A stretch of 43,978 nucleotides of DNA, from positions 1 to 43,978 of IMG/VR virus record IMGVR_UViG_3300021387_000103. One strand, written 5' to 3'. Below the pieces are notes generated by a model. That model saw only the letters and a list, made by a program, of their open reading frames with translations. It had not been told where the DNA came from and searched no databases. Position 1 is the first letter of the stretch. Each line of letters opens with the position of its first letter. Source of the stretch: a virus. The translations under genes and the position numbers were made by a program. Positions 3,730 to 24,051 of this stretch are shown piece by piece.

Positions 3730-4028
3730 ATTTTCAAACGGTCTTTGGCTTTTTTAACCGTGTCCACATCCGGGTTGGCCTTTAGGAATTCCAAGAATTT
3801 ATCGCGGCCCAATTTCCGGTAAATCGGCACAAAATCCATTCGGCACAAATCCGCCGGTTCCCCGGGTTCAATTGCTTTTGTCCGGCCGGCCTTTTCTGCT
3901 TCAAGTGAACATTCGAAAATGTCATGGCCGCGTTTGTCAACAATGACGAATTCTTGCCCGTTAAGTGTGATTCGACCAAAATAACGGGCAATGGAAAGTT
4001 GAGAATTCGCCCAAAAAGATTCAGCCAT
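3714..4028 (-). CDS. hypothetical protein
   Basis: ORF track. Start moved to MAESFW (TAATG overlap with the upstream stop at 4028). Confidence 0.6.
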   Translation of the reverse strand: MAESFWANSQLSIARYFGRITLNGQEFVIVDKRGHDIFECSLEAEKAGRTKAIEPGEPADLCRMDFVPIYRKLGRDKFLEFLKANPDVDTVKKAKDRLKIWQRK

Positions 4029-4624
4029 TACAATTGTTCCCATGTTTCGAATTCGCGTTGATTCATGACAAAGTAATGGCCGGATTCATCGCGGCAAATG
4101 GCGTCGGTTTCCATTGCATCAAGGAATACCGATCCGTTAAGGAAATGGAACGAAATAGATTCTTTTTCGTTCCTTGGAATGCGGATTTGGCCACCGCCGA
4201 CAAAGTGGCGCAAGCGCGAATATTCCCGCACATTGTTTGTCAAGAAAATTACCCGTAATTTGTCACCGGAACGATTATACACTAACCGTCCCTTTTCCGG
4301 ATCACATTCGAAACGCTCCCTTTCGTCACCAATCACGAACGGGTATTCCTGTTCGCTTAACTTGATTTTGACAACGAATTGTTTGGCATCCGGGTTGTCT
4401 TGAATGCTAACGAACCGTTCCCCGATCCGGCCAATGACGGCATCCATGACGGCATTAACGAAATCCGCGTCGGATCGGTTGGAATAGTCAACGACGATTT
4501 TGTAGCAATCCCGGGAATGATATTCCGGAACGCATGGTTTGCCGGTCAACGATTCAACCATCATGAACAGTTCCGCATCGTATGGCGTAAGCCTATTTTT
4601 CCATGTCGTTTTCATAATGTTCAA
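4028..4624 (-). CDS. hypothetical protein (198 aa)
   Basis: ORF track; tightly packed in the operon. Confidence 0.65.
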   Translation of the reverse strand: MNIMKTTWKNRLTPYDAELFMMVESLTGKPCVPEYHSRDCYKIVVDYSNRSDADFVNAVMDAVIGRIGERFVSIQDNPDAKQFVVKIKLSEQEYPFVIGDERERFECDPEKGRLVYNRSGDKLRVIFLTNNVREYSRLRHFVGGGQIRIPRNEKESISFHFLNGSVFLDAMETDAICRDESGHYFVMNQREFETWEQL

Positions 4625-11472: not shown

Positions 11473-11927
11473 TTCAAGCAAAAATTCGTCATGTCGAAAT
11501 ATCCGACCACGCATTTATGGCCACAATTCCATGCGTCCAAGATAACGCCATCAACACACGCCGTTTCATGGCTTGCAACAGAAATGACATAACGCCCGGT
11601 CGGATGCGTTTCCGCAAATTGTTCAACGGTCATGCGTGATTTTCCCTTAATGGCTGGACAATGTGTCCATATTGCGCCATCCTCAACAATCCAACGTCGG
11701 AATCCGGGGCCATCGGTCGGAACGTTGAAATCGCGGCGGCCCTTTGCCACCAAGTAATCGAATGCATCAATCCATGAACAGGAAATTGAATTCGCTAACG
11801 CACGAATGACACAATCGCCGCGATCCCAGCGGAAACCGCGTTTTTTCTTCCAACACGGATTCGGATTTTCTATCCGAAAATGCTTGCCGGATAGATAGAA
11901 CTTTTTGAATTTCTTTTCGTCCATCAT
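11469..11927 (-). CDS. hypothetical protein, possible papain/C39-like cysteine peptidase
   Basis: Candidate catalytic Cys in RGDCVIRALANS and His in VASHETACVDGVILDAWN. Track ORF 11469..12038 trimmed to MMDEKK because its N-terminus runs through tRNA-Leu. Confidence 0.5.
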   Translation of the reverse strand: MMDEKKFKKFYLSGKHFRIENPNPCWKKKRGFRWDRGDCVIRALANSISCSWIDAFDYLVAKGRRDFNVPTDGPGFRRWIVEDGAIWTHCPAIKGKSRMTVEQFAETHPTGRYVISVASHETACVDGVILDAWNCGHKCVVGYFDMTNFCLK

Positions 11928-11945
11928 TACATAAAGATTTGGTTT

Positions 11946-11961
11946 CCGGGAATCGGCCCGG
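11946..11961 (-). promoter_or_regulatory. stand-alone copy of leader hairpin 2 (CCGGG-CCGATT-CCCGG), 18 nt upstream of the ATG at 11927
   Basis: Minus strand ACGGGCCGGGCCGATTCCCGGaaaccaaatctttatgtaATG. Matches the linker and hairpin 2 of the four promoter leaders. Confidence 0.6.
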
Positions 11962-11971
11962 CCCGTTTGTG

Positions 11972-12052
11972 TACCCGTGGCCGGAATCGAACCGGCACCC
12001 CTTTCGAGAATGGATTTTGAGTCCATCGCGGCTACCATTACGCCACACGGGT
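11972..12052 (-). tRNA. tRNA-Leu(CAA): tRNA-Leu (anticodon CAA), class II with long variable arm
   Basis: Hand fold. Acceptor ACCCGTG/CACGGGT, D arm GCG-TAATGGTAGC-CGC, anticodon arm ATGGA-CTCAAAA-TCCAT, 13-nt variable arm, T arm GCCGG-TTCGATT-CCGGC. 81 nt, no encoded CCA. Confidence 0.85.
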
Positions 12053-12129
12053 TTGTTGGGTTTTCGCGCGTCCCCGCGTTACTTACCCGATTATGATAAC
12101 ACTATCGAATAAAAGGGTTTCCCCCTTTG

Positions 12130-12200
12130 TTGCTTCGCCCCGATTCGAACGGGGAATACCGGAACCAAAATCCGATGTGTTGCCGTTACACCACGAAGCA
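12130..12200 (-). tRNA. tRNA-Gln(TTG): tRNA-Gln (anticodon TTG)
   Basis: Hand fold. Acceptor TGCTTCG/CGAAGCA (U1-A72), D arm GTGT-AACGGCA-ACAC, anticodon arm TCGGA-TTTTGGT-TCCGG, T arm CCCCG-TTCGAAT-CGGGG. 71 nt. Confidence 0.85.
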
Positions 12201-12207
12201 ATATAAT

Positions 12208-12366
12208 TTATCGCAATTGGTCAATAATGGCCGCTTTCAATTTGACCGCTTCCGCCGGGGTCAATTTATTGGTTTGTGCCAAGACGGCAACTGCCATTCC
12301 AACCGGCGTACAATCCAAAACCATTTTAACACCCATGTAAACCAACTTGTCAAAACTTGCTTTCAT
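12208..12366 (-). CDS. hypothetical protein, 52 aa, first ORF after promoter P_A (below track cutoff)
   Basis: Hand translation MKASFDKLVYMGVKMVLDCTPVGMAVAVLAQTNKLTPAEAVKLKAAIIDQLR. The ATG lies 14 nt after leader hairpin 2. Confidence 0.45.
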   Translation of the reverse strand: MKASFDKLVYMGVKMVLDCTPVGMAVAVLAQTNKLTPAEAVKLKAAIIDQLR

Positions 12367-12380
12367 TGCTTTGTCATTTA

Positions 12381-12455
12381 CCGGGAACCGGCCCGGGCCG
12401 TCGGGCCATATCCTTGACCCGCAACAAAGGTAAGGATAATTTTTTAATATCCAAA
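12381..12455 (-). promoter_or_regulatory. Promoter P_A (TTTG 12452..12455, 19-nt spacer, TACCTTTG 12425..12432) plus conserved two-hairpin leader (12381..12420)
   Basis: Minus strand TTTGgatattaaaaaattatcctTACCTTTGttgcGGGTCaaggatatGGCCCgacggcCCGGGccggttCCCGGtaaatgacaaagcaATG. Confidence 0.75.
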
Positions 12456-12776
12456 AAAAAATCCATTATTTTTGAAATAAATTTGGCGGTTCAAGAATTT
12501 TCGGCAACCAAACAACGGTTCTTTCAGATAATGCACGGCGAAAAGCGACATCCGATTCCGGATGCGTCCCGTATTCGTGCCAATGTTTGAATTTGCCCCG
12601 CTTGATTTCAACGGTTGCATGATTGCCCGTTCTTGGCGCACGGATTCGCGCTTTAACCATAATTCAATTTTTTGTCTGATCGCGGTAATTATTTCTTTCG
12701 GCCAACGTCTTATGCAATGAACATCGGATGCACGGTTGATGGTTGAACCGGCAAACGCCGTGTCGCTCATGGACAC
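12444..12776 (-). CDS. alternative-frame ORF (110 aa, GTG 12776 or ATG 12770); the 3' half is doubtful
   Basis: The open frame runs through promoter P_A (tail ...IYFKNNGFFFGY is a translation of AT-rich promoter DNA). The 5' third looks protein-like. Confidence 0.3.
   Translation of the reverse strand: MSMSDTAFAGSTINRASDVHCIRRWPKEIITAIRQKIELWLKRESVRQERAIMQPLKSSGANSNIGTNTGRIRNRMSLFAVHYLKEPLFGCRKFLNRQIYFKNNGFFFGY
12466..12660 (-). CDS. hypothetical protein (64 aa); mutually exclusive with the overlapping 12444..12776 frame
   Basis: Protein-like composition (MVKARIRAPRTGNHATVEIKRGKFKHWHEYGTHPESD...). Ends just before the P_A -33 element. Confidence 0.4.
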   Translation of the reverse strand: MVKARIRAPRTGNHATVEIKRGKFKHWHEYGTHPESDVAFRRALSERTVVWLPKILEPPNLFQK

Positions 12777-12802
12777 ATTTTGCCAACAATGATTTTACCA
12801 TC

Positions 12803-13018
12803 CTAAAACAATTTTGGGGTGGGATCAAGCAACCGCGCATTAAGCGCGTCCAATTCTCTTTCCATGCGCTTTGACAGTTCCAGCGCATCCGGCTTGCGCG
12901 TTGCAAAATATCGGCGTTGGTTATGTCGTAATTCAGCGACAAAGCGTACATATTCGATTGCCTGTTCCGGCGTTATTTTCTGCAAATTTTCGATTTGCGG
13001 GCATTTTATTTCTTCCAT
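12803..13018 (-). CDS. hypothetical protein (71 aa)
   Basis: ORF track; helical, charged sequence. Confidence 0.55.
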   Translation of the reverse strand: MEEIKCPQIENLQKITPEQAIEYVRFVAELRHNQRRYFATRKPDALELSKRMERELDALNARLLDPTPKLF

Positions 13019-13028
13019 GATAGATTTA

Positions 13029-13319
13029 TCATTTTTTTGTCGTTTTGCGTTTTACGGGCTTGTTTTCGGCCTTTTTGGCTGGACGTCCTCTTTTCCGGGT
13101 TTCCGGAATATTTTTCGTGGACTTTCGAACGCTTTGGGCCGTTTTTGGTACGCTTTGGGCCGTTTTTCGAACATCCCCGGGATCATGGTTGCATATTACG
13201 AACGCGCAATATGCTGGTTCCCCGCGATAATTTTGGCAAGTCCTACACCCCGGCGAACCGACTTCCGTTCCAGCCCGGAACGGGCATTCGCCAATGGCTT
13301 TATACATTTTCGTTATCAT
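13029..13319 (-). CDS. putative DNA-binding protein: Cys-rich N-terminus plus AT-hook-like basic tail
   Basis: CPFRAG..GCRTCQNY...CAFVIC, then KRGRPAKKAENKPVKRK. Contains an in-frame 7-aa tandem repeat, KTAQSVP/KTAQSVR. Confidence 0.55.
   Translation of the reverse strand: MITKMYKAIGECPFRAGTEVGSPGCRTCQNYRGEPAYCAFVICNHDPGDVRKTAQSVPKTAQSVRKSTKNIPETRKRGRPAKKAENKPVKRKTTKK
13129..13170. repeat. 21-bp tandem repeat x2 (acgctttgggccgttttt core) inside the CDS
   Basis: 13129..13146 and 13150..13167 are identical 18-mers, period 21 bp. Confidence 0.85.
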
Positions 13320-13495
13320 AATTCGTCACCGTCAATTGTTTTACCGGTTAACTCATTTATCCGATTTGCAAGTTTCCCCGCTTCGACCAACAAGCGGAAA
13401 CGTAATTGTTTTAATTCTTTGATACCCATTTCTTCCAACTTGGCGGGTTTTCCATCCGAATATTGAACATTGATTTGAATAATAACGTGTTGCAT
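13316..13495 (-). CDS. hypothetical protein (59 aa)
   Basis: Track ORF trimmed to MQHVIIQ, which abuts the upstream stop at 13497. Confidence 0.45.
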   Translation of the reverse strand: MQHVIIQINVQYSDGKPAKLEEMGIKELKQLRFRLLVEAGKLANRINELTGKTIDGDEL

Positions 13496-13496
13496 A

Positions 13497-13826
13497 TTAT
13501 GCGGGCTTATAAATACAATAATGGCGTATATCATTCATAATTTCCCAATCGCATTGCGAATCAAAATTTAACGCGTCCAAACGCCGTTCGTGATAACGCG
13601 GCCCATTATAGGATTCGCCGTTTTTTACAAAATGGTCGCGGTATTTGAATATCAATTTGCCGTGGCGTTTCAAGATTCGACCATAAATATAAATTTCGTG
13701 TAACAGTCCATCAGAACCACCACACCACCAAAGAAATTCAATCCAATCGCCAACGCGAACACGGCGGCCGTTCCTATCGAAATATCGCGTTAATTCATTA
13801 CGGCCAAATGTTTTGTTCATATCCAT
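13497..13826 (-). CDS. hypothetical protein (109 aa)
   Basis: ORF track. Confidence 0.6.
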   Translation of the reverse strand: MDMNKTFGRNELTRYFDRNGRRVRVGDWIEFLWWCGGSDGLLHEIYIYGRILKRHGKLIFKYRDHFVKNGESYNGPRYHERRLDALNFDSQCDWEIMNDIRHYCIYKPA

Positions 13827-13967
13827 ATCAAAACATTTTTTAATATTCGCTTATTCTCATATCAATAACGTTGTTTCAATATTCGGCAATAATCGCCCGG
13901 CCCGGCATTGCATTTCCCATTGTGCCAAAACCAATAACCCAAACATTCGTTTTTCAACTTGCACATT

Positions 13968-14546
13968 TCAAAACAACTTTTGGTATTCACGTTCCGGCAA
14001 ATTAGCCTTTACCCATTTCGGATCATTGACCAAAGCCCAACGGCCGAAATGCATTAATAACATGGCATCCGAATTCCATAACGTTGCCTTAACTTCGGGA
14101 TATAATGCGGCGGCCGTGCGCTGGTAACGATGTTTTCTTTCTTCCTTACTTTCACGAACCGATGAATTGCGTTCGCGCAACTTCAATTTGGTTTGCCACG
14201 AAAGCGGATGAACCATTACATACGGGATGCCAACCGCTTCGATTATGGCTTTCAAATGTTCGTAATTGGCCATCATGCGTTGGATTCGATACAACTTACC
14301 CATCGCGGCCCGGTCGCCTTGTACTATCACATCATCCGGGCGGACGGATAGTTTTTCAAGAAAGACAATCGGTTTGAAATTGTCACGATAATACAACAGG
14401 AAATCGCGCAATTCTGCAACATCTTTCGGCATCTTAATAGTGCTAACTAACGCGCGATATTTCCCCGGAACAAACACGGCGATTCCACCCGCCGCGCCCG
14501 GATCAATACCAATGACGCAATTAATTTTTATTTTACTTTCCATCAA
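13968..14546 (-). CDS. RuvC-like Holliday junction resolvase
   Basis: IGIDPGAAGG (first catalytic Asp), VFLEKL, C-terminal NSDAMLLMHF. Confidence 0.78.
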   Translation of the reverse strand: MMESKIKINCVIGIDPGAAGGIAVFVPGKYRALVSTIKMPKDVAELRDFLLYYRDNFKPIVFLEKLSVRPDDVIVQGDRAAMGKLYRIQRMMANYEHLKAIIEAVGIPYVMVHPLSWQTKLKLRERNSSVRESKEERKHRYQRTAAALYPEVKATLWNSDAMLLMHFGRWALVNDPKWVKANLPEREYQKLF

Positions 14547-14562
14547 AAAAATATGTTACTTT

Positions 14563-15471
14563 CTATTCGAATTTTATGTAATCCGCAATGTTGATACCCT
14601 GTTCATGCATCCGGCGGAATGTTTCTTTCAAAGCCTTTTGCCGCGCCAAAATGAACGCATCGTGTTTGAGTTCCGGAGCATCCGGGCCAATCTTTTCCAA
14701 TCGACGGGCATTGCCAATGTAACCGCGTTGCGCCATGTCATAAATCGTCCGATATAACACACTTTTTTGTTCATCCGGAGTTATGACAATTTCCGGGGCC
14801 AACCCAGCATCCGAAAGAACCCCGTAATACAACAATTCGGCGATTGGCGATAATTCCGGGAAAACGCCGGTTGCCTTGTATTCCTCAAACGAACGAATGA
14901 CATTGTGCCGGGTTTCGTTCAAATAACGTTGTTGGCTTTCCGTATCGGGCTTTGGTTCAACCTTTGGCATCGCTTCGTTCGCTTTCTTGAATACCCAGCC
15001 CCGGCGGCCCTTATACGCATTCAGTATCTTGCAAACATATTCGGCGTTGAATTGCTGATAATGGTTTTTGTCCGGCTGGCCATCGCGCCCACGTGGCAAG
15101 AAATCATCAAGTTCGCCCGTTATGCTCATTTCGAATGCCATTCGGAAATCCTTTAATGTCAAATTGGCATAATAGCGTTTCAAGATTTCAGCAACCCGGA
15201 TAACCAAATATTGCCGGTCGCTTTCATCCGTCGTCCTATATCCGACGTCTTTGCATATCCATTTCAACGCCGTTCCAAGTTCGGCCGCCAATTCCGTCGG
15301 CGAATATTCGGCAATGATCTTGGCCGTGGATGCAAGGAATACGGCACGTTCGACCGGCCCCAATGCATCCATAACGGCGGGAATCTTGACCATTTCCCGG
15401 CGTTTTACGACGCCCGTTTCAACCGATGGTTTGCGGGCTGGTGAAATAATCATTTGTTTATCCTGTTCCAT
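14563..15471 (-). CDS. hypothetical protein (302 aa), possibly replication-associated by position
   Basis: Directly downstream of the winged-helix initiator-like gene. No motif recognised. Confidence 0.6.
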   Translation of the reverse strand: MEQDKQMIISPARKPSVETGVVKRREMVKIPAVMDALGPVERAVFLASTAKIIAEYSPTELAAELGTALKWICKDVGYRTTDESDRQYLVIRVAEILKRYYANLTLKDFRMAFEMSITGELDDFLPRGRDGQPDKNHYQQFNAEYVCKILNAYKGRRGWVFKKANEAMPKVEPKPDTESQQRYLNETRHNVIRSFEEYKATGVFPELSPIAELLYYGVLSDAGLAPEIVITPDEQKSVLYRTIYDMAQRGYIGNARRLEKIGPDAPELKHDAFILARQKALKETFRRMHEQGINIADYIKFE

Positions 15472-15474
15472 TGG

Positions 15475-16230
15475 TTAATCCGCCATGTCTTGCAAATATT
15501 TGATTGCATCCGGGGATAATCCCGGGCCGGCCGGGCTTTTCCGGTGCAACTTTCCTTTTTCCATGTCGCCACGAATGAAATTCCGGGCCGTTGCGATCCA
15601 ATCTTTCATTTTCTTGCCCTTTTGGGCCGACCAATCCGCAACGGCATGGTAATAATAAACCATATCCACGTCGGCGAATTCCGGGGCCGTGAATTGGGCG
15701 GCGAATGCGTCATATTCAGCAAACCGGGAATTTTCGAACAGACACGCGGCCGGTTCGGTTGTCCGACGCGGCCGGACAACTGTAATTGATTCAAACGATG
15801 GATCAGAAGGGAACAAACCGCCGTCGGCGGCTTTATCATTATCAATAGTTTTATCTTTAGTATTATCTTTATTCGTTGCTATTTCAGCAACGCCCCCGTT
15901 GCTATTTTGATACACCCCCGTTGCTATTTCAGCAACGCTATGTCTGTTTGCGACATAATGGCAAAATTTCACACCGGAAAAGAACATTTCGCGTTTATCA
16001 ATCAATCCACGGTCAATCAATCGGTCAATTATCTTTTTGGCATTTTGCTTTGTCACATTCAAGGCCGATGCAACATAATTCAAGGAACCCCGGAATTCGG
16101 TTTCATCGTCTTGCGTAAAACCATATATTAACGAATAACACAACAGTTCATTTCCGGATAACCCAAGTTCGACAATGGCAAATCCCGGTACGGTTATGTA
16201 ATTTTCAATCTTGAATTTTCGCGCTTCCAT
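15475..16230 (-). CDS. putative replication initiator / replisome organiser (N-terminal winged helix)
   Basis: N-terminal wHTH-like LSGNELLCYSLIYGF...GSLNYVASALNVTKQNAKKIIDRLIDRGLI. Iteron-like repeats and an AT-rich tract lie inside the gene. Confidence 0.55.
   Translation of the reverse strand: MEARKFKIENYITVPGFAIVELGLSGNELLCYSLIYGFTQDDETEFRGSLNYVASALNVTKQNAKKIIDRLIDRGLIDKREMFFSGVKFCHYVANRHSVAEIATGVYQNSNGGVAEIATNKDNTKDKTIDNDKAADGGLFPSDPSFESITVVRPRRTTEPAACLFENSRFAEYDAFAAQFTAPEFADVDMVYYYHAVADWSAQKGKKMKDWIATARNFIRGDMEKGKLHRKSPAGPGLSPDAIKYLQDMAD
15841..15940. repeat. candidate origin: AT-rich tract (15841..15873) plus three GTTGCTATTT iterons (15875, 15898, 15920), two within the 17-bp palindrome GTTGCTATTTCAGCAAC
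   Basis: Spacing is 23 and 22 bp. Copies 2 and 3 are preceded by CCCCC. Confidence 0.5.
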
Positions 16231-16273
16231 TATAGTTCAATTCCAAAATATTCTTCCAACACCTTTTTCGGAT

Positions 16274-17059
16274 TTATCGCATTTCCGGGAATAACCCGCC
16301 CGTTATTGCCGCCATATAATCGTCATTACTTCGGCAAAATAACCGATAATAAAATCCATTATATGCGGAACCATCAATCGTTTTCCAATATTTCGAATTC
16401 GTATGGTTGTCAAGATGCTTTTGATATGCCTTAATTTGCGCTTTCAACAATTTTGGGTATTCAAGGAAATCGGCCAAACCAACATCCGATTTCAACGGGC
16501 ATCCCAAACATCCCAACCGGCGTTCCACATGAAAAATCCCCTTTTCATCATAATAGAGTGGCGCGCATTTTATTTTTCGGGCCTTAATGAATTGCGCCAC
16601 ATCATCATCAGTCCATTCAAGAATCGGCAAATAAATACGGACTTTTTCGCCCTTTGAATATGTACGACAATATTCGGGTTCCTTATATCGTTGCGCCCTT
16701 TTTGTGGATTCGGACCGGCGTATTCCTTGGATTGCCCGGTCATATATCTTGTATTCCTTTAATGCCGAACAACAAAACCGCCGCCAACGGGATGGTAAAC
16801 CTTGTTTTTCAATCAAGGCATTAAACGTTATTGTAGGACGAACAATTGTAACATTGTTTTCCCGGCAATGCGCAATCGTTCCCGGCGGGTCAATAGTTGT
16901 ATTTTTGTATATGGCTTCAAAAGGAATTCCCGCCATCTTGGCAAGTTCCAAAATTATGTCGGAATCCTTGCCACCCGAATAGGATAATTCGATTGGTCCG
17001 TCTTGCGGAATGGATTGCAAGAATTTGATGGCAAAATCAATTTTACGTTGTAAATCCAT
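16274..17059 (-). CDS. PAPS reductase / PP-loop ATPase family protein
   Basis: PP-loop SYSGGKDS near the N-terminus and a C-terminal Cys cluster RRLGCLGCPL. 261 aa. Confidence 0.82.
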   Translation of the reverse strand: MDLQRKIDFAIKFLQSIPQDGPIELSYSGGKDSDIILELAKMAGIPFEAIYKNTTIDPPGTIAHCRENNVTIVRPTITFNALIEKQGLPSRWRRFCCSALKEYKIYDRAIQGIRRSESTKRAQRYKEPEYCRTYSKGEKVRIYLPILEWTDDDVAQFIKARKIKCAPLYYDEKGIFHVERRLGCLGCPLKSDVGLADFLEYPKLLKAQIKAYQKHLDNHTNSKYWKTIDGSAYNGFYYRLFCRSNDDYMAAITGGLFPEMR

Positions 17060-17064
17060 AATTC

Positions 17065-17174
17065 AAAAAAATCCCGATGTTTGGGCCACTACACACCAAA
17101 CACCGGGACATTCGCAATAATTGCGGGAATTTTCCGTTCGTTGGTAGTGGGCAACGCTATTTGATGCAAATATA
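17065..17174 (-). promoter_or_regulatory. TATATTTG box (17167..17174), ~95-nt leader, and a strong intrinsic terminator (17065..17107) ending 5 nt before the ATG at 17059
   Basis: Minus strand CCCGGTGTTTGG-tgtgtagtgg(c)-CCAAACATCGGG, a 12-bp stem with one G.U, then ATTTTTTT, gaatt, ATG. Confidence 0.65.
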
Positions 17175-17175
17175 C

Positions 17176-17907
17176 TTATTTTTTCGATTCGGGCAATAAT
17201 AGCGACAAATTTTGCGTTGGGGCCATTGCATCCCGAATTTCGGAAATTCGGTTATCATTGGCAATCAGCGAAACAACCGGATAACGGGAATTGGAACCGG
17301 GCTTGTTTGACTTGGCAAATTGCACCGACAAATCGAACACGGTTCCCGTAACTGTTCCGCGCATCCGCTTGACGCCATCGAATGATTCCCGGATGTTCCG
17401 GATTGACGACGCCTTGCCCTTTGTGCTAAATTGCCATACACCAACAATGCCCCGGACGGCTGGAATAATCACGCGCAAAGTCAACACAACATCCCAATTG
17501 TCCGCCCCGCGCTTCGTCGAATTCTTTTCGCTGATTTGCGACATAATATCCGGGTATTGCTCAACCGGATAAGGCGCGTATTTCTTGCCATCCCAAATTT
17601 CGAAAACTCGACCATCCCCCCGGGCAACCAGCGCACCAAAATTATCGCGATATTCATAACGTTCGTTGCATACCTTTTCCGGATCGTCAGAAGGGAAAAC
17701 AACTTGGATCGTGGCGGGCTTTTCGCCTAACGCCGCCGTAAACATCCCGGCATATTTCCCGGATGGGATGAAATAGTCAACCGATACCGGATATTCCTTG
17801 CCGTTTTGGCTCACTTGCTTTTTGCCGATATGCAACCGGCCAATTTCGGGTAATTCAAGGATTCCCGCGCCCTGTTCGGGCCTGTAAATTCTACCGCCCA
17901 TCTCCAA
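17176..17907 (-). CDS. hypothetical protein (243 aa); possible recombination partner of the adjacent nuclease (position only)
   Basis: ORF track. No motif recognised. Confidence 0.65.
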   Translation of the reverse strand: MEMGGRIYRPEQGAGILELPEIGRLHIGKKQVSQNGKEYPVSVDYFIPSGKYAGMFTAALGEKPATIQVVFPSDDPEKVCNERYEYRDNFGALVARGDGRVFEIWDGKKYAPYPVEQYPDIMSQISEKNSTKRGADNWDVVLTLRVIIPAVRGIVGVWQFSTKGKASSIRNIRESFDGVKRMRGTVTGTVFDLSVQFAKSNKPGSNSRYPVVSLIANDNRISEIRDAMAPTQNLSLLLPESKK

Positions 17908-18127
17908 AGATTATTTGTTTTAATTCTTCCTTTGTTCCCGCAACATTTTGTTCCGGTGTTAAAAATGCGTGTTCCCTATCAAAAGAATGATGAACCGATA
18001 TAACAAGCCGGTTTTTGTCATCAAAATACGCAACAACCTTTGTGCAAGTTATCGTTTTTTGGGTTGGACTGTTTGCTTCCATTATCCAAACGGAACCCCC
18101 CGGCATAAAATTAGTTCGAATTTCCAT
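17891..18127 (-). CDS. hypothetical protein (78 aa)
   Basis: ORF track. Confidence 0.5.
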   Translation of the reverse strand: MEIRTNFMPGGSVWIMEANSPTQKTITCTKVVAYFDDKNRLVISVHHSFDREHAFLTPEQNVAGTKEELKQIIFGDGR

Positions 18128-18128
18128 C

Positions 18129-19472
18129 TTACAATTCGATTTCGTCGTTTAACAAATTATCTTTGGCCGCCTGTTCCGGGGCCGGTTCGAAATACCGGGC
18201 CGTCACTTTCGCGCCATCGTCGGTTTTCTCAACCTCAATGCCTGTGCCGTCGGCCATATCCTTTTCCCACGGTAATTTTTCCGTAATTTCCGTTTTAACG
18301 GGCTTTTTCGGTTCGGACGGGGAATTTATCGGTTCGGCAACTTTCTTGCGATTTACGGCCCGTTTACGGCCTTTTTCGGAAACTTCCGGGGCATCATTGG
18401 AAATTCCCAATGCATTTTCGGCAATCTTGATTTCTTCCGGGGTTATTTCCGGGACGTTAGCCGCCCTTTGCGGCGCATCATCCTTGGCCGCCTTATTCTT
18501 GATCAATTCGGCCAATGATAGTGTCAAGATATTATCGGCGATCTTGCCTTTGTCAAGTTCCAGCACACCGCGAATTATTGTCAATGTGTTGTCCCTCTTT
18601 TCATCCTCAATCGTCGCAAGGGCCAACAGATATGGCAATTTCTTCGCATTGACCGAATCCGTTTGATCCTTCAAATTGTACGTGGGTTTTGTGCGCCAAT
18701 CTTTCGGGGAAAAATTGAACACACGTGCGACCGGCATATCGGGAAAATTGACATTCCACATTTCCCGGTATAAATGCAATTGCAATTCATGTTCTTCAAA
18801 AAAGCCTTTCCGACCGCTTTTGAAATCCACGATCGCCGTAAACTGTTTGCCTGTTTTCGGATCACGCATGATGCAAGGAAGATCGACGCATCCGGCATAA
18901 TGGAATTCCGGATGAACCAAACCGATTTCCACGGCCAGCGGAACAACGTTGTAATCCTTGACGAATTGTGCAAAGGCCAAAACGTCTTTCCGTACCTTTG
19001 GCAACCATTCAGAAAAGACCCGTTCGGGCAAATTGTTTTGTTCCATGTATGCCAACAGGACGCCCGGAACCGTATCGAAATCATAACGACGGTTAATTAT
19101 CAGTTGTTCAAACTGAATGTGCATGAACGTTCCATAAGCGGCGGCAAGATCGCGTTTTTCCGTCGATCCTTCCTTGCCGTTTGCAATCATCCAATCCAGC
19201 AACGCCGGCGGGGTTGGCATAACTTGTTTCAAAAGCGTTGTAACGGATGGGAAAAATACCGGGTTCCCGGCATCGTCGAACCGGTAATAATATCGGTGGC
19301 CCTCTGAATTGAGTTGATAAACGCGATAAGGCGGTTCGCGCAACGCGTCAGTATTGAAGAATACGGCCCGGATTTCCTCAATGGTCATGCCCGGGTAAAT
19401 TTCCACCTTTGCATCCTGTTCCGGTTCGGTCAAAGCGGCCAATTCCGAATAATTGTTGTTGTCCTCTTTCAT
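18129..19472 (-). CDS. PD-(D/E)XK (RecB-family) nuclease with long charged C-terminal extension
   Basis: GCVDLPC ... AIVDFKSG ... ELQLHLY (D, DxK and QxxxY motifs). Confidence 0.68.
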   Translation of the reverse strand: MKEDNNNYSELAALTEPEQDAKVEIYPGMTIEEIRAVFFNTDALREPPYRVYQLNSEGHRYYYRFDDAGNPVFFPSVTTLLKQVMPTPPALLDWMIANGKEGSTEKRDLAAAYGTFMHIQFEQLIINRRYDFDTVPGVLLAYMEQNNLPERVFSEWLPKVRKDVLAFAQFVKDYNVVPLAVEIGLVHPEFHYAGCVDLPCIMRDPKTGKQFTAIVDFKSGRKGFFEEHELQLHLYREMWNVNFPDMPVARVFNFSPKDWRTKPTYNLKDQTDSVNAKKLPYLLALATIEDEKRDNTLTIIRGVLELDKGKIADNILTLSLAELIKNKAAKDDAPQRAANVPEITPEEIKIAENALGISNDAPEVSEKGRKRAVNRKKVAEPINSPSEPKKPVKTEITEKLPWEKDMADGTGIEVEKTDDGAKVTARYFEPAPEQAAKDNLLNDEIEL

Positions 19473-19481
19473 CGTGTATCG

Positions 19482-19646
19482 CTATTTTAATTTTCGTTCT
19501 TTCACATAATCCACAATGAATGCGGCGCACATTCCGCCGGCAATGATTGCGGAAAATATTTGTGCGGTATTCCAAAAAATCGCCACAATGGCAAGAATGA
19601 AGCAAACGCCCCAAACAATAGCCCAAAACAAATTTACGTACTTCAT
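19482..19646 (-). CDS. small membrane protein, 54 aa (below track cutoff)
   Basis: Hand translation MKYVNLFWAIVWGVCFILAIVAIFWNTAQIFSAIIAGGMCAAFIVDYVKERKLK. Confidence 0.45.
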   Translation of the reverse strand: MKYVNLFWAIVWGVCFILAIVAIFWNTAQIFSAIIAGGMCAAFIVDYVKERKLK

Positions 19647-19649
19647 GGC

Positions 19650-19880
19650 TTATTCGTTTGTAATACCCAGCAAGAAATCGGCCGTGCATCCGGTCATTTC
19701 ACAAATTATGACAATCCACGCTGGATTCACCCGCGCGGTTGTTCCGTTGCACAATGCGGTCATATTGACTTGTTGCGCAACCGCCGTTGAATCGGGCCAC
19801 AAACGGGCCGCAATATCCTTTTTCAAAACTTTCTTGCCCTGTTCCTTTGCGCGGGCAATTGCCTGTTCAATTCTAATCAT
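19650..19880 (-). CDS. XRE/Cro-like helix-turn-helix transcriptional regulator
   Basis: 76 aa. HTH-like KKDIAARLWPDSTAVAQQVNMTALCNG and a C-terminal ADFLLG typical of the family. Confidence 0.65.
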   Translation of the reverse strand: MIRIEQAIARAKEQGKKVLKKDIAARLWPDSTAVAQQVNMTALCNGTTARVNPAWIVIICEMTGCTADFLLGITNE

Positions 19881-20298
19881 ATTCTTTTATTATTTTTTCG
19901 CCGCAAACATTGCAACGATATATTTCACGAATGGTTTTATACGTCGGCGGCAATTCATTTCGCCATGACTGTATTACGCGCGTTTCTTCATCATACAACG
20001 AAAGCGAACCGCCACAATGCGGGCATTCGTAATCGTCCATGACAGTCAATCGGCAAAAGGCTTTGAACACGTCGTCGGTAAGGGTTGAAAGACCTAACGT
20101 TTCACAAATAATCCGCTTTACATCTGGAATATATTGCGGCCCCATCGCCAACAATACATTCGCGCCATAAACAAATTCGGTATCTTCCAGCATCCCGGCA
20201 TTTATGAAAGCGGCACAAAGGGATTTGCCGACGAACGCGGCCGATTTCCCGCTTGCGCTACAAAGAACGTCCAAATATTTATCATTCTTAAATTGCAT
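19873..20298 (-). CDS. zinc-ribbon protein
   Basis: CPHCGG ... CNVCGE pairs near the C-terminus. 141 aa. Confidence 0.55.
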   Translation of the reverse strand: MQFKNDKYLDVLCSASGKSAAFVGKSLCAAFINAGMLEDTEFVYGANVLLAMGPQYIPDVKRIICETLGLSTLTDDVFKAFCRLTVMDDYECPHCGGSLSLYDEETRVIQSWRNELPPTYKTIREIYRCNVCGEKIIKEYD

Positions 20299-20315
20299 GG
20301 CTTGTTATATTGGTG

Positions 20316-20333
20316 GCCCCGGTTGCCCGGGGC
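20316..20333 (-). promoter_or_regulatory. intercistronic GC hairpin (GCCCCGG-GCAA-CCGGGGC), 17 nt upstream of the ATG at 20298
   Basis: Perfect 7-bp stem with a GNRA-type loop and no U-tract. Confidence 0.55.
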
Positions 20334-20341
20334 TGACTTAT

Positions 20342-20566
20342 TTATTCGATAACTAATTTTTCCATTTCCTTTGCGTCGAATGTATAACCGTGTTTCGCAA
20401 ACTCTTTGACGGCGGCCCGCTTGGCGGTTTTCGCATTCTTATAACCGTGGCCAACGCTAAACCAATATTCGCCGTCTTGCATTGCCATAACCAAAATATT
20501 AATTCCGCCATTAGGGAAGAAAGAAACGGCCTTGTGGTCGGAATTGTTGCATTTGATCGTTGCCAT
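20342..20566 (-). CDS. hypothetical protein (74 aa), first ORF after promoter P_D
   Basis: Track ORF trimmed to MATIKCNN because its N-terminal extension translates the leader hairpins. Confidence 0.5.
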   Translation of the reverse strand: MATIKCNNSDHKAVSFFPNGGINILVMAMQDGEYWFSVGHGYKNAKTAKRAAVKEFAKHGYTFDAKEMEKLVIE

Positions 20567-20586
20567 AACTTGTAAAATTTTCGTTT

Positions 20587-20659
20587 CCCGGAATCCGCCG
20601 GGCCGCTGGGTCATTCCTCAACCCGCAACAAAGATAGGTATTTTAATTTAATTACCAAA
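20587..20659 (-). promoter_or_regulatory. Promoter P_D (TTTG 20656..20659, 19-nt spacer, TATCTTTG 20629..20636) plus conserved two-hairpin leader (20587..20624)
   Basis: Minus strand TATCTTTGttgcGGGTTgaggaatGACCCagcggCCCGGcggattCCGGGaaacgaaaattttacaagttATG. Confidence 0.75.
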
Positions 20660-20697
20660 ATATTTTCCATAATTTTTATAATTTCTTTCATTAGCAC

Positions 20698-20784
20698 AAA
20701 AAAACCGCCCACATTTCACAACGCGGGCGGACAACTGAATAATCAATGACTTACTATGAACAAAGACTGATCCGAACAAATATA
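20698..20784 (-). ncRNA. candidate short transcription unit X: TATATTTG box (20777..20784), ~45 nt, terminator CCGCCC-14 nt-GGGCGG-U7 (20698..20730)
   Basis: No ORF. The terminator loop GCGTTGTGAAATGT is similar to the loop in unit Y (CTGTTGAGAAATAC). Confidence 0.35.
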
Positions 20785-20787
20785 AAG

Positions 20788-20810
20788 AAAAAACCCGGGA
20801 TTTTCCCGGG
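20788..20810 (-). terminator. intrinsic terminator after gene 20817..21230
   Basis: Minus strand CCCGGGaaaatCCCGGG followed by TTTTTT. Confidence 0.65.
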
Positions 20811-20816
20811 CTATAA

Positions 20817-21230
20817 TTATTTGTAAATTTCGTTGTTGATATGTTTATGGATCAGCGTAAAAACCGCAATAATTGCCGCTTTGTTTTCGTTGTATTCCTG
20901 TTGCGGACAATCGGCCACGAAATTTTCGAATTGTTTGTATAGGACTTGCAACTGTTCCAACGTCATTGTGTACCGTTGGCATCCTGTTTCGTCAACGATG
21001 CCGCGTTGGATTACATCTTTGCCGTCGGGCCGGGTTCCCATCTTGTAATGAACGAACGCCCGGCGGGCCAAATCAACCACGTTGTCGCCAATGTACCAAA
21101 CAAGCCCGTAAACGGATTTATACTTGGCGTTCGGCCTTTCGGATTGGATGGTTACGTTGACCGTTTCCCCGGGCTTTTTCCCGTCCGTTTCGACCTCAAC
21201 AATATAATGTTCGATTCTGTATGTTTCCAT
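20817..21230 (-). CDS. hypothetical protein (137 aa from METYRIEH; the track start at 21257 lies inside a hairpin loop)
   Basis: ORF track. The ATG at 21230 lies 15 nt after the hairpin, matching the spacing seen at other genes. Confidence 0.55.
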   Translation of the reverse strand: METYRIEHYIVEVETDGKKPGETVNVTIQSERPNAKYKSVYGLVWYIGDNVVDLARRAFVHYKMGTRPDGKDVIQRGIVDETGCQRYTMTLEQLQVLYKQFENFVADCPQQEYNENKAAIIAVFTLIHKHINNEIYK

Positions 21231-21245
21231 TGCTTTTGGATTGTT

Positions 21246-21265
21246 GGGGCCGGTCATCCGGCCCC
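21246..21265 (-). promoter_or_regulatory. perfect 8-bp GC hairpin GGGGCCGG-ATGA-CCGGCCCC
   Basis: Read directly. The ATG at 21255..21257 forms most of the 4-nt loop. Confidence 0.6.
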
Positions 21266-21272
21266 GGGTTAT

Positions 21273-21470
21273 TTACCAAAGTGTTACATCTTCGTTGTGG
21301 ATTCCGCGCACGAAACATTCGGCATAAAGGACTGTTAAATCATTGTATGCGGCTAAAATCGCGGCATCCTTGGCACGGACAAGTTGGAAATAAGTGTTGG
21401 ATAAATCGGCACAAATGTATTCGATGAAATACTTTGTGTTGGTGCGCTTGGCAAGTTCGATTGTTGACAT
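21273..21470 (-). CDS. hypothetical protein (65 aa), first ORF after promoter P_B
   Basis: The ATG lies 19 nt after leader hairpin 2. Confidence 0.5.
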   Translation of the reverse strand: MSTIELAKRTNTKYFIEYICADLSNTYFQLVRAKDAAILAAYNDLTVLYAECFVRGIHNEDVTLW

Positions 21471-21489
21471 ATCTTTATCTTTTTCTTTA

Positions 21490-21565
21490 CCGGGAACCGG
21501 CCCGGGCCGTCGGAATCATTATCGCTTCCGGGTACAAATATAGGCATTATTTTCTATTTACCAAA
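21490..21565 (-). promoter_or_regulatory. Promoter P_B (TTTG 21562..21565, 19-nt spacer, TATATTTG 21535..21542) plus two-hairpin leader (21490..21530)
   Basis: Minus strand TATATTTGtaccCGGAAgcgataatgaTTCCGacggcCCGGGccggttCCCGGtaaagaaaaagataaagatATG. Hairpin 1 differs in sequence but is a hairpin at the same position. Confidence 0.72.
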
Positions 21566-21627
21566 AGTTTTTCCTATATTTTCAAAGAAATTTGCATATT
21601 TTTAGCAAAAATCCAGCCCGAAACGGG

Positions 21628-21635
21628 TATATTTG
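21628..21635 (+). promoter_or_regulatory. plus-strand TATATTTG -7 box for the only plus-strand gene, divergent from P_B
   Basis: TATATTTGTTCGGA is identical over 14 nt to the box and start of unit X (minus strand, 20771..20784). Confidence 0.45.
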
Positions 21636-21661
21636 TTCGGAAACCCATAAAATATTGCATC

Positions 21662-21805
21662 ATGCCCGTTCGAAAAGTACAAGGCGGCTATCGTTGGGGA
21701 CAATCCGGCAAAGTCTATCCAACCAAAGAACAGGCCGAACGCCAAGGCCGCGCAATTTACGCATCCGGTTACAAGGAAAAGCCGACGCAAACCAAAAAGA
21801 AATAG
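21662..21805 (+). CDS. small basic protein (47 aa), the only plus-strand gene
   Basis: MPVRKVQGGYRWGQSGKVYPTKEQAERQGRAIYASGYKEKPTQTKKK. Has its own promoter box and a strong plus-strand terminator downstream. Confidence 0.5.
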   Translation: MPVRKVQGGYRWGQSGKVYPTKEQAERQGRAIYASGYKEKPTQTKKK

Positions 21806-21835
21806 GGAATTCCCAATAAATTACCCGAAATTCCC

Positions 21836-21920
21836 TATCTTTGTTGCGTCCTCTTACCATCGTATCGCCATTTATGGTATTCAAGACGCCGCGCCCGGGC
21901 TTTTCCGGGTGCGTTTTTTT
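21836..21920 (+). ncRNA. candidate short plus-strand transcript: TATCTTTG box (21836..21843), ~45 nt, terminator GCGCCCGG-GCTTTT-CCGGGTGC-G-T7 (21891..21920)
   Basis: Box plus the next 5 nt (TATCTTTGTTGCG) are identical to P_D. No ORF over 16 codons. The terminator also ends the 21662..21805 gene and faces the end of the minus operon. Confidence 0.35.
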
Positions 21921-22176
21921 ATAGGACTTGCGCACACTCATACGCGAACCGTTCCCGGGCCGACCAATGGCACATCGCCATAATTCGGTTTTCTTCCTTT
22001 TGCGCTTCTATTTCATCCCATACCGACCAACCCTTTGATGAATACGGAAACGGGTATGCCTTTTTGAATTTGCGCAATGATGTATAACGCGGGAATGGTC
22101 GCAAACGGTCGTTTTTATTAGTTACATATTGGCAACCATCAACGGCAATTGGACGCAATTTTGGTTTCTTTTTCAT
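21919..22176 (-). CDS. hypothetical protein (85 aa)
   Basis: ORF track. Confidence 0.5.
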   Translation of the reverse strand: MKKKPKLRPIAVDGCQYVTNKNDRLRPFPRYTSLRKFKKAYPFPYSSKGWSVWDEIEAQKEENRIMAMCHWSARERFAYECAQVL

Positions 22177-22193
22177 ATCACAATGTTTTTATC

Positions 22194-22481
22194 TTATCGC
22201 AAATTTGGGGTTGTCTTTGATCCGCCACAAAAAACGGCTAAATCAACAAGCGAACGTTGGTTTTCCAGCCCCTTCGGCATTACGACAACGGCCGTGCGGT
22301 CGGAACTGTCAAAGATGAAATATTGAGGATATGAACGGCGCATCAATTCAAAATGAAAGATGCCCGGCCCGGAATCGTTAGGAAATGAAAAGGCCAAAAC
22401 GTCGCATTCTTCCAGCGTCTTGCCCTTTTCATTCAGAATTGCGCAGTATTGATCCAACCGGCTTTTACTTTTCTTCGCCAT
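22194..22481 (-). CDS. hypothetical protein (95 aa from MAKKSKSRL)
   Basis: Track ORF trimmed to the second ATG. Confidence 0.5.
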   Translation of the reverse strand: MAKKSKSRLDQYCAILNEKGKTLEECDVLAFSFPNDSGPGIFHFELMRRSYPQYFIFDSSDRTAVVVMPKGLENQRSLVDLAVFCGGSKTTPNLR

Positions 22482-22689
22482 AACTCTTATTGACACAAAT
22501 AGCGACAACGGCCGCGATTACTAAAATAATATATTCCATAAGTAATGATTATTTATGATGTAAAACTGAATCAATTACCCGTTTGGCCCATTAAAGCGAC
22601 GGAACCCATTTGTTGCCGGTTGCCCGGTTCCGGTTGAAAACCTCAACGACCGACGCCGGATTTCCAAATTTGAATTTTTGCATATCTGT

Positions 22690-22863
22690 TTATTTTTGGT
22701 TGTTTTCATCAATGAATTGTAACAATCCCTTGAACGCATCTTGCGCACCCATCAACCGCCAATGCCGTTCCAAATCTTCCGGCGATTGGCCAATTAACGC
22801 ATCGTGGATGAATGATTGCCGCCGGGCAATTTCCTTACGTATATCTTCAACGGTTATTTTCAT
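22690..22863 (-). CDS. hypothetical protein, 57 aa (below track cutoff)
   Basis: Hand translation MKITVEDIRKEIARRQSFIHDALIGQSPEDLERHWRLMGAQDAFKGLLQFIDENNQK. The ATG overlaps the end of the HNH gene. Confidence 0.5.
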   Translation of the reverse strand: MKITVEDIRKEIARRQSFIHDALIGQSPEDLERHWRLMGAQDAFKGLLQFIDENNQK

Positions 22864-23374
22864 ATTTGTAAATAATTCCTTTTCGGGTTGGGTTTCCTTT
22901 TAACCAATAATTCATTCTATTTGAACTTGTTTTATTGGCAATTATCGCATTTTTTAACGATTCATACCGTGTAATAATCCCGTTTTCGATTTTTAAGACG
23001 GCGCGTTTATAATGTTGACGCAAACCCATTCTTTGCGCGTGTTGGATATTCTCTTTTGGTGTTACCCATTCAAGATTTGACAAATTATTGTTTAATTTGT
23101 TTCCGTCTTTGTGGTTAACCTGTAATCCATCCGGGTTGTAATCAAATGATTCCAAAACAATACGGTGTACCGTGTGGGTCGTTCTTTGTTTATTTTTTTG
23201 CAAGGCAACGCACATATAACCGTATCGGTCAATGTATTGTGACAATTCGCGTTCTTTGACGGGCAACATACCATTACGTGAACGCAATACAATTCGGGCA
23301 ACACTTTTAATTCGTCCGGTATTCGATACGATATATAAACCATCGTATCCATAAACGGGTTTCCATATTTCCAT
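22847..23374 (-). CDS. free-standing HNH homing endonuclease (NUMOD4-like N-terminus plus HNH_3 core)
   Basis: WKPVYGYDGLYIVSNTGRIKS; VNHKDGNKLNNNLSNLEWVTPKENIQH. Confidence 0.85.
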   Translation of the reverse strand: MEIWKPVYGYDGLYIVSNTGRIKSVARIVLRSRNGMLPVKERELSQYIDRYGYMCVALQKNKQRTTHTVHRIVLESFDYNPDGLQVNHKDGNKLNNNLSNLEWVTPKENIQHAQRMGLRQHYKRAVLKIENGIITRYESLKNAIIANKTSSNRMNYWLKGNPTRKGIIYKYENNR

Positions 23375-23485
23375 AACACAAAAAACGCCCCGTATTTCAT
23401 CCCACGTTTTGCCCCCGTGGAATTACTTTACAGGGCATTAAATTTCTATTCGGTTGGGGCAAACAACCTTTCGGGTGCAAATATA
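23375..23485 (-). promoter_or_regulatory. TATATTTG box (23478..23485) and ~95-nt structured leader ending in CGGGGCG-T6 (23380..23392), 5 nt before the HNH ATG
   Basis: Local hairpin CCACG-ggggcaaaa-CGTGG. Long-range GCCCC (comp. of 23456..23460) can pair with GGGGC (comp. of 23387..23391). Confidence 0.4.
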
Positions 23486-23493
23486 ATAATTTT

Positions 23494-23727
23494 TCAATGA
23501 ACGTAAAAACTGACACGTATCCCCCGGCGCAACTTGCAAATGCATTTATCGTCCATTGATGCAAACGCCCTGTCCAAAAGACGGTTGGTTAATTCGATGT
23601 CCCCAACCATACGGATCAGCCCGGAAACGCCCACAAGCGTATTGACCTTCGAACCATCATACAACCCGGAAACCTTGATTTTGTAATTGCGGTTGATCTG
23701 TCTTGTTGTGTACTTTAATGTTGCCAT
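23494..23727 (-). CDS. hypothetical protein (77 aa), first ORF after promoter P_C
   Basis: Track ORF trimmed to MATLKYTT. The ATG lies 17 nt after leader hairpin 2. Confidence 0.5.
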   Translation of the reverse strand: MATLKYTTRQINRNYKIKVSGLYDGSKVNTLVGVSGLIRMVGDIELTNRLLDRAFASMDDKCICKLRRGIRVSFYVH

Positions 23728-23744: not shown

Positions 23745-23819
23745 CGCGGAACCGGCCGCGTCCGTCGGGCCACATCCTTGACCCGCAACAAAGGTACGCA
23801 TTTATTTTTAATTTCCAAA
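23745..23819 (-). promoter_or_regulatory. Promoter P_C (TTTG 23816..23819, 19-nt spacer, TACCTTTG 23789..23796) plus conserved two-hairpin leader (23745..23784)
   Basis: Minus strand TACCTTTGttgcGGGTCaaggatgtGGCCCgacggaCGCGGccggttCCGCGatagaagaaagaaagcaATG. Confidence 0.75.
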
Positions 23820-24050: not shown

Positions 24051-24051
24051 C

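Follow-up and report, generated by a model that had tools for sequence, protein, structure and literature searches.

We report that a short RNA pseudoknot recurs directly upstream of start codons in a phage genome-sized segment of DNA, IMG/VR record IMGVR_UViG_3300021387_000103 (43,978 bp, hereafter the window), in which essentially all genes lie on the minus strand. The RNA structure is genuine; it is encoded in cis on one strand only and shows compensatory changes. Its conserved core spans 20 nt and comprises two stems, S1 of 3 bp and S2 of 5 bp (8 bp in total), laid out from 5' to 3' as A, S1 (3 nt), loop L1 (1-2 nt), S2 (5 nt), S1' (3 nt), loop L3 (R-U-U) and S2' (5 nt). The original prediction for this DNA had described the element as a four-copy, promoter-proximal leader made of two hairpins joined by a linker, RCGG. 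The four promoter-linked copies are there, and to them must be added a fifth, promoterless copy at 11946-11965 on the minus strand. The RCGG bases turned out to be more than a linker, as they pair with bases 1-3 of the hairpin 2 loop and thereby form S1. Since linker and loop bases covary as pairs, the conserved core is an H-type pseudoknot.

All five copies in the window lie on the minus strand, within the non-structural region (11.9-23.8 kb). In pseudoknot A (12381..12400), S1 pairs CGG (12400-12398) with CCG (12391-12389), L1 is C12397, S2 is CCGGG/CCCGG, L3 is GTT, and the ATG follows at 12366. Pseudoknot B (21490..21509) is identical to A and precedes the ATG at 21470. Pseudoknot C (23745..23764) combines the S1 CGG:CCG with the S2 CGCGG/CCGCG, ahead of the ATG at 23727 that starts a conserved first early gene encoding a 77-aa protein. 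Pseudoknot D (20587..20605; ATG 20566) has the S2 CCCGG/CCGGG, the loop CGGATT and an S1 of only 2 bp (CG:CG). The fifth copy, pseudoknot E (11946..11965; S1 CGG:CCG, S2 CCGGG/CCCGG, L3 ATT), has neither promoter nor hairpin 1; it begins 5 nt past the 3' end of tRNA-Leu(CAA) and ends 18 nt before the ATG at 11927. It was found by both covariance models described below, and with the model of the pseudoknot only it gave the best score in the window (36 bits, the next non-member reaching 15 bits). Direct reading of the letters bore out the earlier description in its other structural points: the hairpin 2 stems CCGGG/CCCGG at 12381-12396 and 21490-21505, CGCGG/CCGCG at 23745-23760 and CCCGG/CCGGG at 20587-20602; their loops, CCGGTT or CGGATT; the A-rich spacers of 14, 19, 17 and 20 nt to the ATG; hairpin 1 as GGGTC/GGCCC in two copies and GGGTT/GACCC in a third, with CGGAA/TTCCG replacing it at 21511-21530; and the lack of a T-run behind the hairpins, which are thus not terminators. 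An A-rich tract without a T-run lies behind all copies, and a terminator scan flagged none of them, so that they do not have the make-up of intrinsic terminators.

The portal protein of the window is 63-70% identical to the portals of cultured Bacteroidota siphophages, namely Bacteroides phage BKO1-3, Alistipes phage AS73P1, Parabacteroides phage PDS1 and Elizabethkingia phage TCUEAP2. A search with the 447-aa exonuclease collected 24 loci from about 22 related phages (52-79% amino-acid identity), and these loci hold dozens of homologous leaders. Two covariance models were used, R1 made from 34 leaders, 30 of them from related phages, and R2 of the pseudoknot only; S1 is encoded in neither. 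R1 scored the four promoter-linked copies in the window at E 1e-11 to 2e-7, with background starting at E 0.4. In a gap-free MAFFT alignment of 46 distinct copies, S1 is 98.6% paired and S2 98.3% paired, and all eight pairs covary. The same was seen with 75 distinct matches of a model that lacks S1 (S1 98.2% paired, S2 98.9%, 8/8 pairs covarying). In both alignments, none of 500 column shuffles reached the observed pairing values, and pairing fell to 55% or less when the partner columns were slid. A covariance model run on related phages had been proposed as a check on the leader, and the covarying structure is indeed conserved in them.

At least eight different S1 triplet pairs are seen in the relatives (CGG:CCG, CCG:CGG, CGC:GCG, ACG:CGU, CAG:CUG, GCG:CGC, CUG:CAG and CCC:GGG), G-U pairs occur within the stems, and the orientation is that of the gene strand in 94 of 94 copies (82 of 82 in an earlier count). 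L1 has 1 nt in 71 copies and 2 nt in 5, and L3 is mostly GUU, AUU or UUU. In this sequence-derived geometry, L1 would cross the 5-bp S2 with 1-2 nt and L3 would cross the 3-bp S1 with 3 nt, which resembles the acceptor-arm pseudoknot of turnip yellow mosaic virus. Upstream of S1 only AAC or GAC is conserved. Folding energies of single sequences are not significant by themselves (z from -1.5 to 0), and the minimum-energy fold of copy A is a non-conserved alternative helix; the structural support comes from covariation.

Copies A to D are linked to promoters. A pattern count gave exactly four TTTG-N19-TAnnTTTG sites in the window, all on the minus strand and as originally listed: promoter A at 12425..12455 (TTTG-N19-TACCTTTG), B at 21535..21565, C at 23789..23819 and D at 20629..20659. 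Shuffled sequences averaged 0.51 such sites, and 0 of 100 reached four. The boxes correspond to the sigma-ABfr -33/-7 consensus of Bacteroidota (PMC7366714). Hairpin 1 follows at 12402..12421 in copy A (CGGGTC...GGCCCG, some 4 nt beyond the -7 box), at 21511..21530 in copy B (CGGAA/TTCCG, an unrelated sequence in the equivalent position), and at 23766..23785 in copy C and 20608..20624 in copy D (GGGTT/GACCC), the last two by direct reading and covariance model; all are on the minus strand. In the window and in most relatives it starts 4-5 nt after TAnnTTTG, and the distance from the -7 box to S1 is nearly invariant (24-25 nt) wherever hairpin 1 is present. If transcription starts about 4 nt after TAnnTTTG, as the -7/-33 naming of the boxes suggests (PMC7366714), hairpin 1 would lie at the extreme 5' end of the transcript. 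It covaries, with double changes at all five pairs, and 84% of its cells are paired, counting the copies that lack it. Hairpin 1 is dispensable: another hairpin takes its place in copy B, and none is present after tRNAs or in copies of PDS1, BKO1-3, AS73P1 and TCUEAP2.

An ATG-initiated open reading frame (ORF) of at least 30 aa lies 7-52 nt downstream in 86 of 86 distinct copies (median 19 nt; 82 of them within 7-30 nt), and the matching fraction for random gene-strand positions in the window is 0.20. Copies in TCUEAP2 end 7-18 nt before independently annotated starts of coding sequences. Promoter-proximal copies account for 61 of the 86, while 9 lie directly after a tRNA, 8 after a stop codon and 8 elsewhere. 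The 8 post-stop copies are found 4-38 nt past the preceding stop, and the clear intercistronic ones start 1-8 nt past it. The promoter is thus not part of the conserved unit, and the element is a one-orientation repeat directly upstream of the start codons of some non-structural genes. Bacteroidota mRNAs carry no Shine-Dalgarno (SD) sequences and rely on A at positions -3, -6 and -11 to -15, and their modal 5' untranslated region (UTR) is 23 nt long (PMC7366714). The pseudoknot adjoins the upstream edge of this A-dependent initiation zone.

The post-tRNA layout occurs in nine related phages, in which the pseudoknot starts 2-5 nt after the tRNA and the order is promoter, hairpin 1, pseudoknot, small ORF, tRNA-Gln, tRNA-Leu, pseudoknot and next gene. 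In the window, promoter A drives a 52-aa ORF, followed on the minus strand by tRNA-Gln(TTG) at 12129..12200 and tRNA-Leu(CAA) at 11971..12052, the latter between leader A and pseudoknot E. The pair of tRNA-Gln(UUG) and tRNA-Leu(CAA) is itself conserved, being present in 13 related loci, and the two anticodons are mutual reverse complements; in the clade of the window, the pair is embedded between two pseudoknot copies.

The pseudoknot is present in the cultured phage-host pairs PDS1/Parabacteroides distasonis (5 copies), BKO1-3/Bacteroides koreensis (4), AS73P1/Alistipes shahii (6) and TCUEAP2/Elizabethkingia anophelis (about 8), where the copies usually lack hairpin 1 and several are intercistronic. 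One exact pseudoknot pattern was found on at least 118 viral contigs. The exact pattern of the full leader retrieved one near-identical phage from viral contigs, the other 31 loci being chance matches. In a degenerate-pattern scan of 185k genomes, one per bacterial species, full leaders were confined to contigs of phage size (about 13-48 kb) that had been binned into metagenome-assembled genomes from gut and rumen; the scan gave no evidence of a host chromosomal copy, and its remaining matches are GC-rich chance hits. Against Rfam 15, whose families include the preQ1, SAM-II, fluoride and guanidine pseudoknot riboswitches, only the two tRNAs matched at the gathering threshold, and a search of 11800-24200 in E-value mode returned nothing on any leader copy. 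No published description of the element was found in the literature.

The distribution is limited to a clade, since Bacteroides fragilis phage vB_BfrS_23, Parabacteroides phage PD691P4 and Croceibacter phage P2559S are without the pseudoknot. PD691P4, from the same host genus as PDS1, has a homologue of the 77-aa gene behind the promoter TATATTTG and a plain A-rich leader of 24 nt. Therefore, the pseudoknot module is accessory and not required by the host expression machinery, which speaks for an added regulatory feature and against a basic need. The 77-aa gene has been kept with the pseudoknot absent in both PD691P4 (L303 120-190) and P2559S (L302 19890-19980), and the pair of PD691P4 and PDS1 offers a natural comparison with and without the element inside one host genus.

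What could such an element do? From sequence comparison, we tentatively favor, at somewhat less than even confidence, the reading that the pseudoknot is an mRNA-level element at the upstream edge of SD-less translation initiation regions and that hairpin 1 is a stem-loop at the 5' terminus. The link to start codons in three unrelated contexts, the sense-only orientation, the conservation of a three-dimensional motif and not of a sequence, the several copies heading early and middle genes, and the dispensability in relatives are best accommodated by this reading. Expression units that carry the pseudoknot have it directly ahead of the A-rich, SD-less region where translation of their first cistron is initiated. 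There, bordering the ribosome-binding region on its upstream side, it would work at the RNA level, either as an operator or as a docking site. The site could set or regulate translation initiation for a small regulon of early and middle genes. Its partner might be the 30S subunit or an RNA-binding protein encoded by the phage or the host; we infer both the effect on translation and the identity of such a partner. In promoter-proximal copies, the sequence-variable hairpin 1 would form the very 5' end of the transcript, most likely protecting it.

Several observations weigh against this reading. The spacing between pseudoknot and ATG is loose (7-8 nt in one gene family, mostly 14-29 nt, and 52 nt in two cases). 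The pseudoknot is not a general initiation signal, being absent from other uncoupled gene starts in the window. The tight adjacency to start codons could be explained in part by the compactness of phage intergenic regions. Finally, neither of the two candidates considered, the 77-aa and 71-aa proteins, is a consistently present partner. The 77-aa first early protein (23494-23727, minus strand; PHROG 32997) is represented in public data by over 1000 clusters at 90% identity; its AlphaFold model is confident (predicted local distance difference test score 92, alpha/beta), with no significant fold match in the PDB (best E 0.09). It was rejected as the partner, being also encoded by the pseudoknot-free phages PD691P4 and P2559S. 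A comparison of gene content between phages with and without the pseudoknot flagged a 71-aa (12803-13018) and a 195-aa protein (4028-4615). The 71-aa protein co-occurs with the pseudoknot in four cultured phages; its gene is missing from the pseudoknot-carrying loci L039, L042 and L049, so the co-occurrence is not consistent and this candidate was rejected as well. Also discarded were an SD-like AGGA or GGA in the loop of hairpin 1 and a pairing of GUUCC with the 3' tail of the 16S rRNA, which either occur in only about half of the copies or show no covariation.

The strongest competitor, possible though we consider it doubtful, is a directional barrier to decay or processing, in which the GC-rich pseudoknot and hairpin 1 would block 5'-end-dependent or 5'-to-3' degradation of the downstream coding RNA after transcription initiation, tRNA excision or intercistronic cleavage, in the manner of 5'-terminal stabilizer hairpins or RNAs similar to exonuclease-resistant RNAs. 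The position of hairpin 1, beginning about 4 nt after the -7 box and hence at or beside +1, would suit such a role, and so would that of the pseudoknots located 2-5 nt past a tRNA 3' end in nine phages, since processing of the tRNA 3' end would leave them at the newly formed 5' end. Other points in its favor are the high stability of the helices (7-8 G-C pairs), the constant orientation of the copies with the genes and the dispensability of the element in a close relative. However, the promoter copies of the PDS1 type, which lack hairpin 1 and have 13-19 nt between the -7 box and S2, would leave an unstructured 5' tail of about 5-11 nt, and the intercistronic copies would be at a 5' end only if the RNA were cleaved there. 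A plain hairpin would suffice for end protection, yet S1 and the bases of L3 are conserved.

A bolder pair of ideas, each resting on the form of the pseudoknot, strikes us as unlikely. The pseudoknot might substitute for the SD interaction by docking its 8-bp coaxial helix on the 30S platform or on ribosomal protein S1, as an "SD-helix mimic" resembling an internal ribosome entry site, or it might be, in minimal form, a bacterial equivalent of the exonuclease-resistant RNAs known from eukaryotic viruses. If true, either would constitute a new class of mechanism for phage takeover of gene expression.

Processive antitermination, either directly on RNA polymerase as with the put RNAs of phage HK022 or through a small phage protein as with lambda nut/boxB, seems to us slightly less likely still. 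The original prediction had pointed to the put layout of two stem-loops just downstream of early promoters, and compensatory RNA structure at early promoters is indeed what we find, in several copies per genome. The put RNAs consist of two stem-loops of about 65-70 nt, both of them required, whereas the conserved unit here is a 20-nt pseudoknot and hairpin 1 is dispensable. Nor are all copies tied to promoters, as there are promoterless ones that begin 2-5 nt past a tRNA or 1-8 nt past a stop codon, although a post-tRNA copy could be seen as restoring a tether lost through tRNA processing. Read-through could reach the late genes, given the uniform gene direction, and terminators do separate the units and precede later genes (20812-20792, 20730-20705, 17107-17065, 23392-23380 and 2749-2680). 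Two of the terminators that had been cited as lying within the operons, at 17065-17107 and 23380-23392, belong instead, as 3' ends, to separate structured leader RNAs with their own promoters and -7 boxes. All copies adjoin a start codon, which modification of RNA polymerase would not need, and the element has no Rfam match and no boxA-like conserved linear motif beyond AAC. The put-like two-hairpin reading is thus weakened, while the fallbacks offered with it, a 5' stabilizer or an operator for a translational regulator, remain live.

The two structured leader RNAs just mentioned, of about 95 nt, are promoter-proximal with their own TAnnTTTG box (23380-23485 and 17065-17174, minus strand), and homologues occur in loci L035, L036, L038, L040, L041, L043, L044, L049, L051, L054 and L057. 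Their 5' hairpin and a hairpin further downstream have complementary loops, which covary (for example, TTTGCCCC/GGGGCAAA, TTGGCC/GGCCAA and CCCACTAC/GTAGTGGG). They share the conserved core GAAATTTAATGCCCTGTAAAGTA and an enclosing helix, GCCCYG/CRGGGC, with a T-run behind it that lies a few nt ahead of the ATG of HNH and PAPS-reductase-like genes. RNAalifold shows compensatory changes in 11 of 16 pairs, and there is no Rfam match for this RNA, which is a candidate attenuator, riboswitch-like leader or phage small RNA. The NUMOD4/HNH_3 homing-type endonuclease gene at 22847-23374 (minus strand) has its only match among seven cultured relatives in BKO1-3 (weak, 34%); with a copy of the 95-nt RNA ahead of it, the gene has the appearance of a mobile insertion with a leader of its own. 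Two short units (24160-24060 and 24050-23980, minus strand) lie in the 365-nt gap that separates promoter C from the lysis genes; in each, a -7-box-like promoter is followed by about 60-75 nt and then by a hairpin with a T-run, and they are candidates for small non-coding RNAs. The terminators at 20812-20792 and 20730-20705 (minus strand) are strong, intrinsic and in tandem just upstream of promoter D; a TATATTTG -7 box between them (20784-20777) may give rise to another very short transcript. Between the genes of the small and large terminase, at 2749-2680 (minus strand), a helix of GGGCGGGG and CCCCGCC encloses a loop of about 50 nt and is followed by T7; the structure, at the beginning of the late genes, is terminator-like but unusual. 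The recognizable genes of the window encode the portal and structural proteins, the large terminase, an SSB, a PD-(D/E)XK exonuclease, a Gp3-like protein, a PAPS-reductase-like protein and an HNH endonuclease.

Three further explanations are disfavored. It is improbable that the promoter and leader modules are primarily a mobile regulatory cassette, that is, recombination substrates that shuffle small early ORFs, with any RNA function secondary. Near-identical modules do precede unrelated small ORFs (the pseudoknots of A and B are identical), the gene content behind the modules varies between relatives, and the promoter and stem-loop elements (PeSLs) of T4-type phages provide a precedent (PMC2839356). 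But recombination calls for sequence identity, while the stems here change by compensatory double substitutions that keep the pairing; moreover, a cassette is compatible with an RNA function and no alternative to it. A small-molecule riboswitch aptamer is very improbable, although the H-type topology, the 20-nt length and the A-rich tail would place the pseudoknot in the compact preQ1-I/SAM-II size class: there are 4-8 copies per genome ahead of unrelated genes, no expression platform was seen (neither a terminator nor a sequestering helix), few bases outside the two stems leave little room for a ligand pocket, and Rfam gave no match even in E-value mode. The least probable proposal of all, a double-stranded DNA operator for a dimeric transcription factor overlapping the transcription start, draws on the element's place just downstream of promoters and on CGGCCCGGGCCG, a perfect DNA palindrome in copies A and B, but CGGACGCGGCCG in copy C and CGGACGTGCCCG in L049 are non-palindromic, covariation follows the interleaved S1/S2 pattern of a pseudoknot, and some copies lie far from any promoter. 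Together, the palindromy confined to A and B, the G-U pairs and the orientation strictly with the gene strand indicate an RNA structure and not duplex DNA.

To our knowledge, the way in which mRNAs are selected for translation in Bacteroidota, whose ribosomes ignore the SD sequence, is poorly understood, and we know of essentially nothing on the timing of early and late expression in Bacteroidota phages. The presence of the pseudoknot in cultured phage-host pairs makes its function directly testable. The pseudoknot could also serve as a compact, portable 5'-UTR part for expression engineering in gut Bacteroidales.

Comparison with known systems places the element among several families of leader RNAs. 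The put sites of HK022, putL and putR, resemble it as cis-acting RNAs of early transcripts that are present in several copies, include a promoter-proximal copy and show compensatory stem change; they differ in that the core described here is a 20-nt pseudoknot tied to a start codon, with one hairpin dispensable. Lambda nut (boxA plus the N-bound boxB) is likewise a small structured RNA with a conserved loop and variable stems, found once per early operon in a promoter-proximal or intercistronic position. The element of the window, in contrast, has no boxA-like motif, is a pseudoknot and not a hairpin with a GNRA-like pentaloop, and always stands beside an ATG; among the phages compared, no candidate for an N-like partner was consistently present. 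Stabilizers of the ompA type and the RNase III hairpins of T7 early mRNAs are comparable in that hairpin 1 would be at +1 and the structures flank early cistrons, but they are simple or bulged hairpins, and end protection by itself explains neither why the pseudoknot is conserved nor why some copies lie away from 5' ends. The PeSLs of T4-type phages (PMC2839356, PMC4122927) are similar in being repeated modules of early promoter plus structure that precede small ORFs in variable regions. They are composite promoter-terminator motifs according to the title of one report (PMC4122927) and have been proposed to act as recombination substrates (PMC2839356); the structure in the window instead lies in the leader, is no terminator and evolves by compensatory change.

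The nearest structural analogues are the leader pseudoknots of T4 gene 32, Escherichia coli rpsO (bound by S15) and the alpha operon (bound by S4), which are also of the H type, lie upstream of an unstructured initiation region and are protein docking sites that control initiation. They are single-copy, autoregulatory and larger, with known partners, whereas the element of the window is multi-copy and minimal. In behavior, the closest analogue is the start-associated sequence (SAS) of Cluster K mycobacteriophages, together with its extended form (ESAS) (PMC3203893). Both elements are multi-copy (11-19 for SAS, 4-8 for the pseudoknot), keep to one orientation and to the non-structural half of the genome, immediately precede the start codons of only some genes, which belong to different families, are phage-specific and absent from host chromosomes, and are suspected of a role in translation initiation (PMC3203893). 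SAS, however, is a 13-bp linear motif with an SD core located 3-7 bp from the start codon, and for the inverted repeats of ESAS its authors found no support for RNA pairing (PMC3203893). The element of the window is a covarying pseudoknot 7-29 nt from the ATG in phages of SD-less hosts, and has no sequence relationship to SAS. Judged on sequence and structure, we rate it as probably a cis-acting leader RNA of a known kind, with a new structure and a new distribution.

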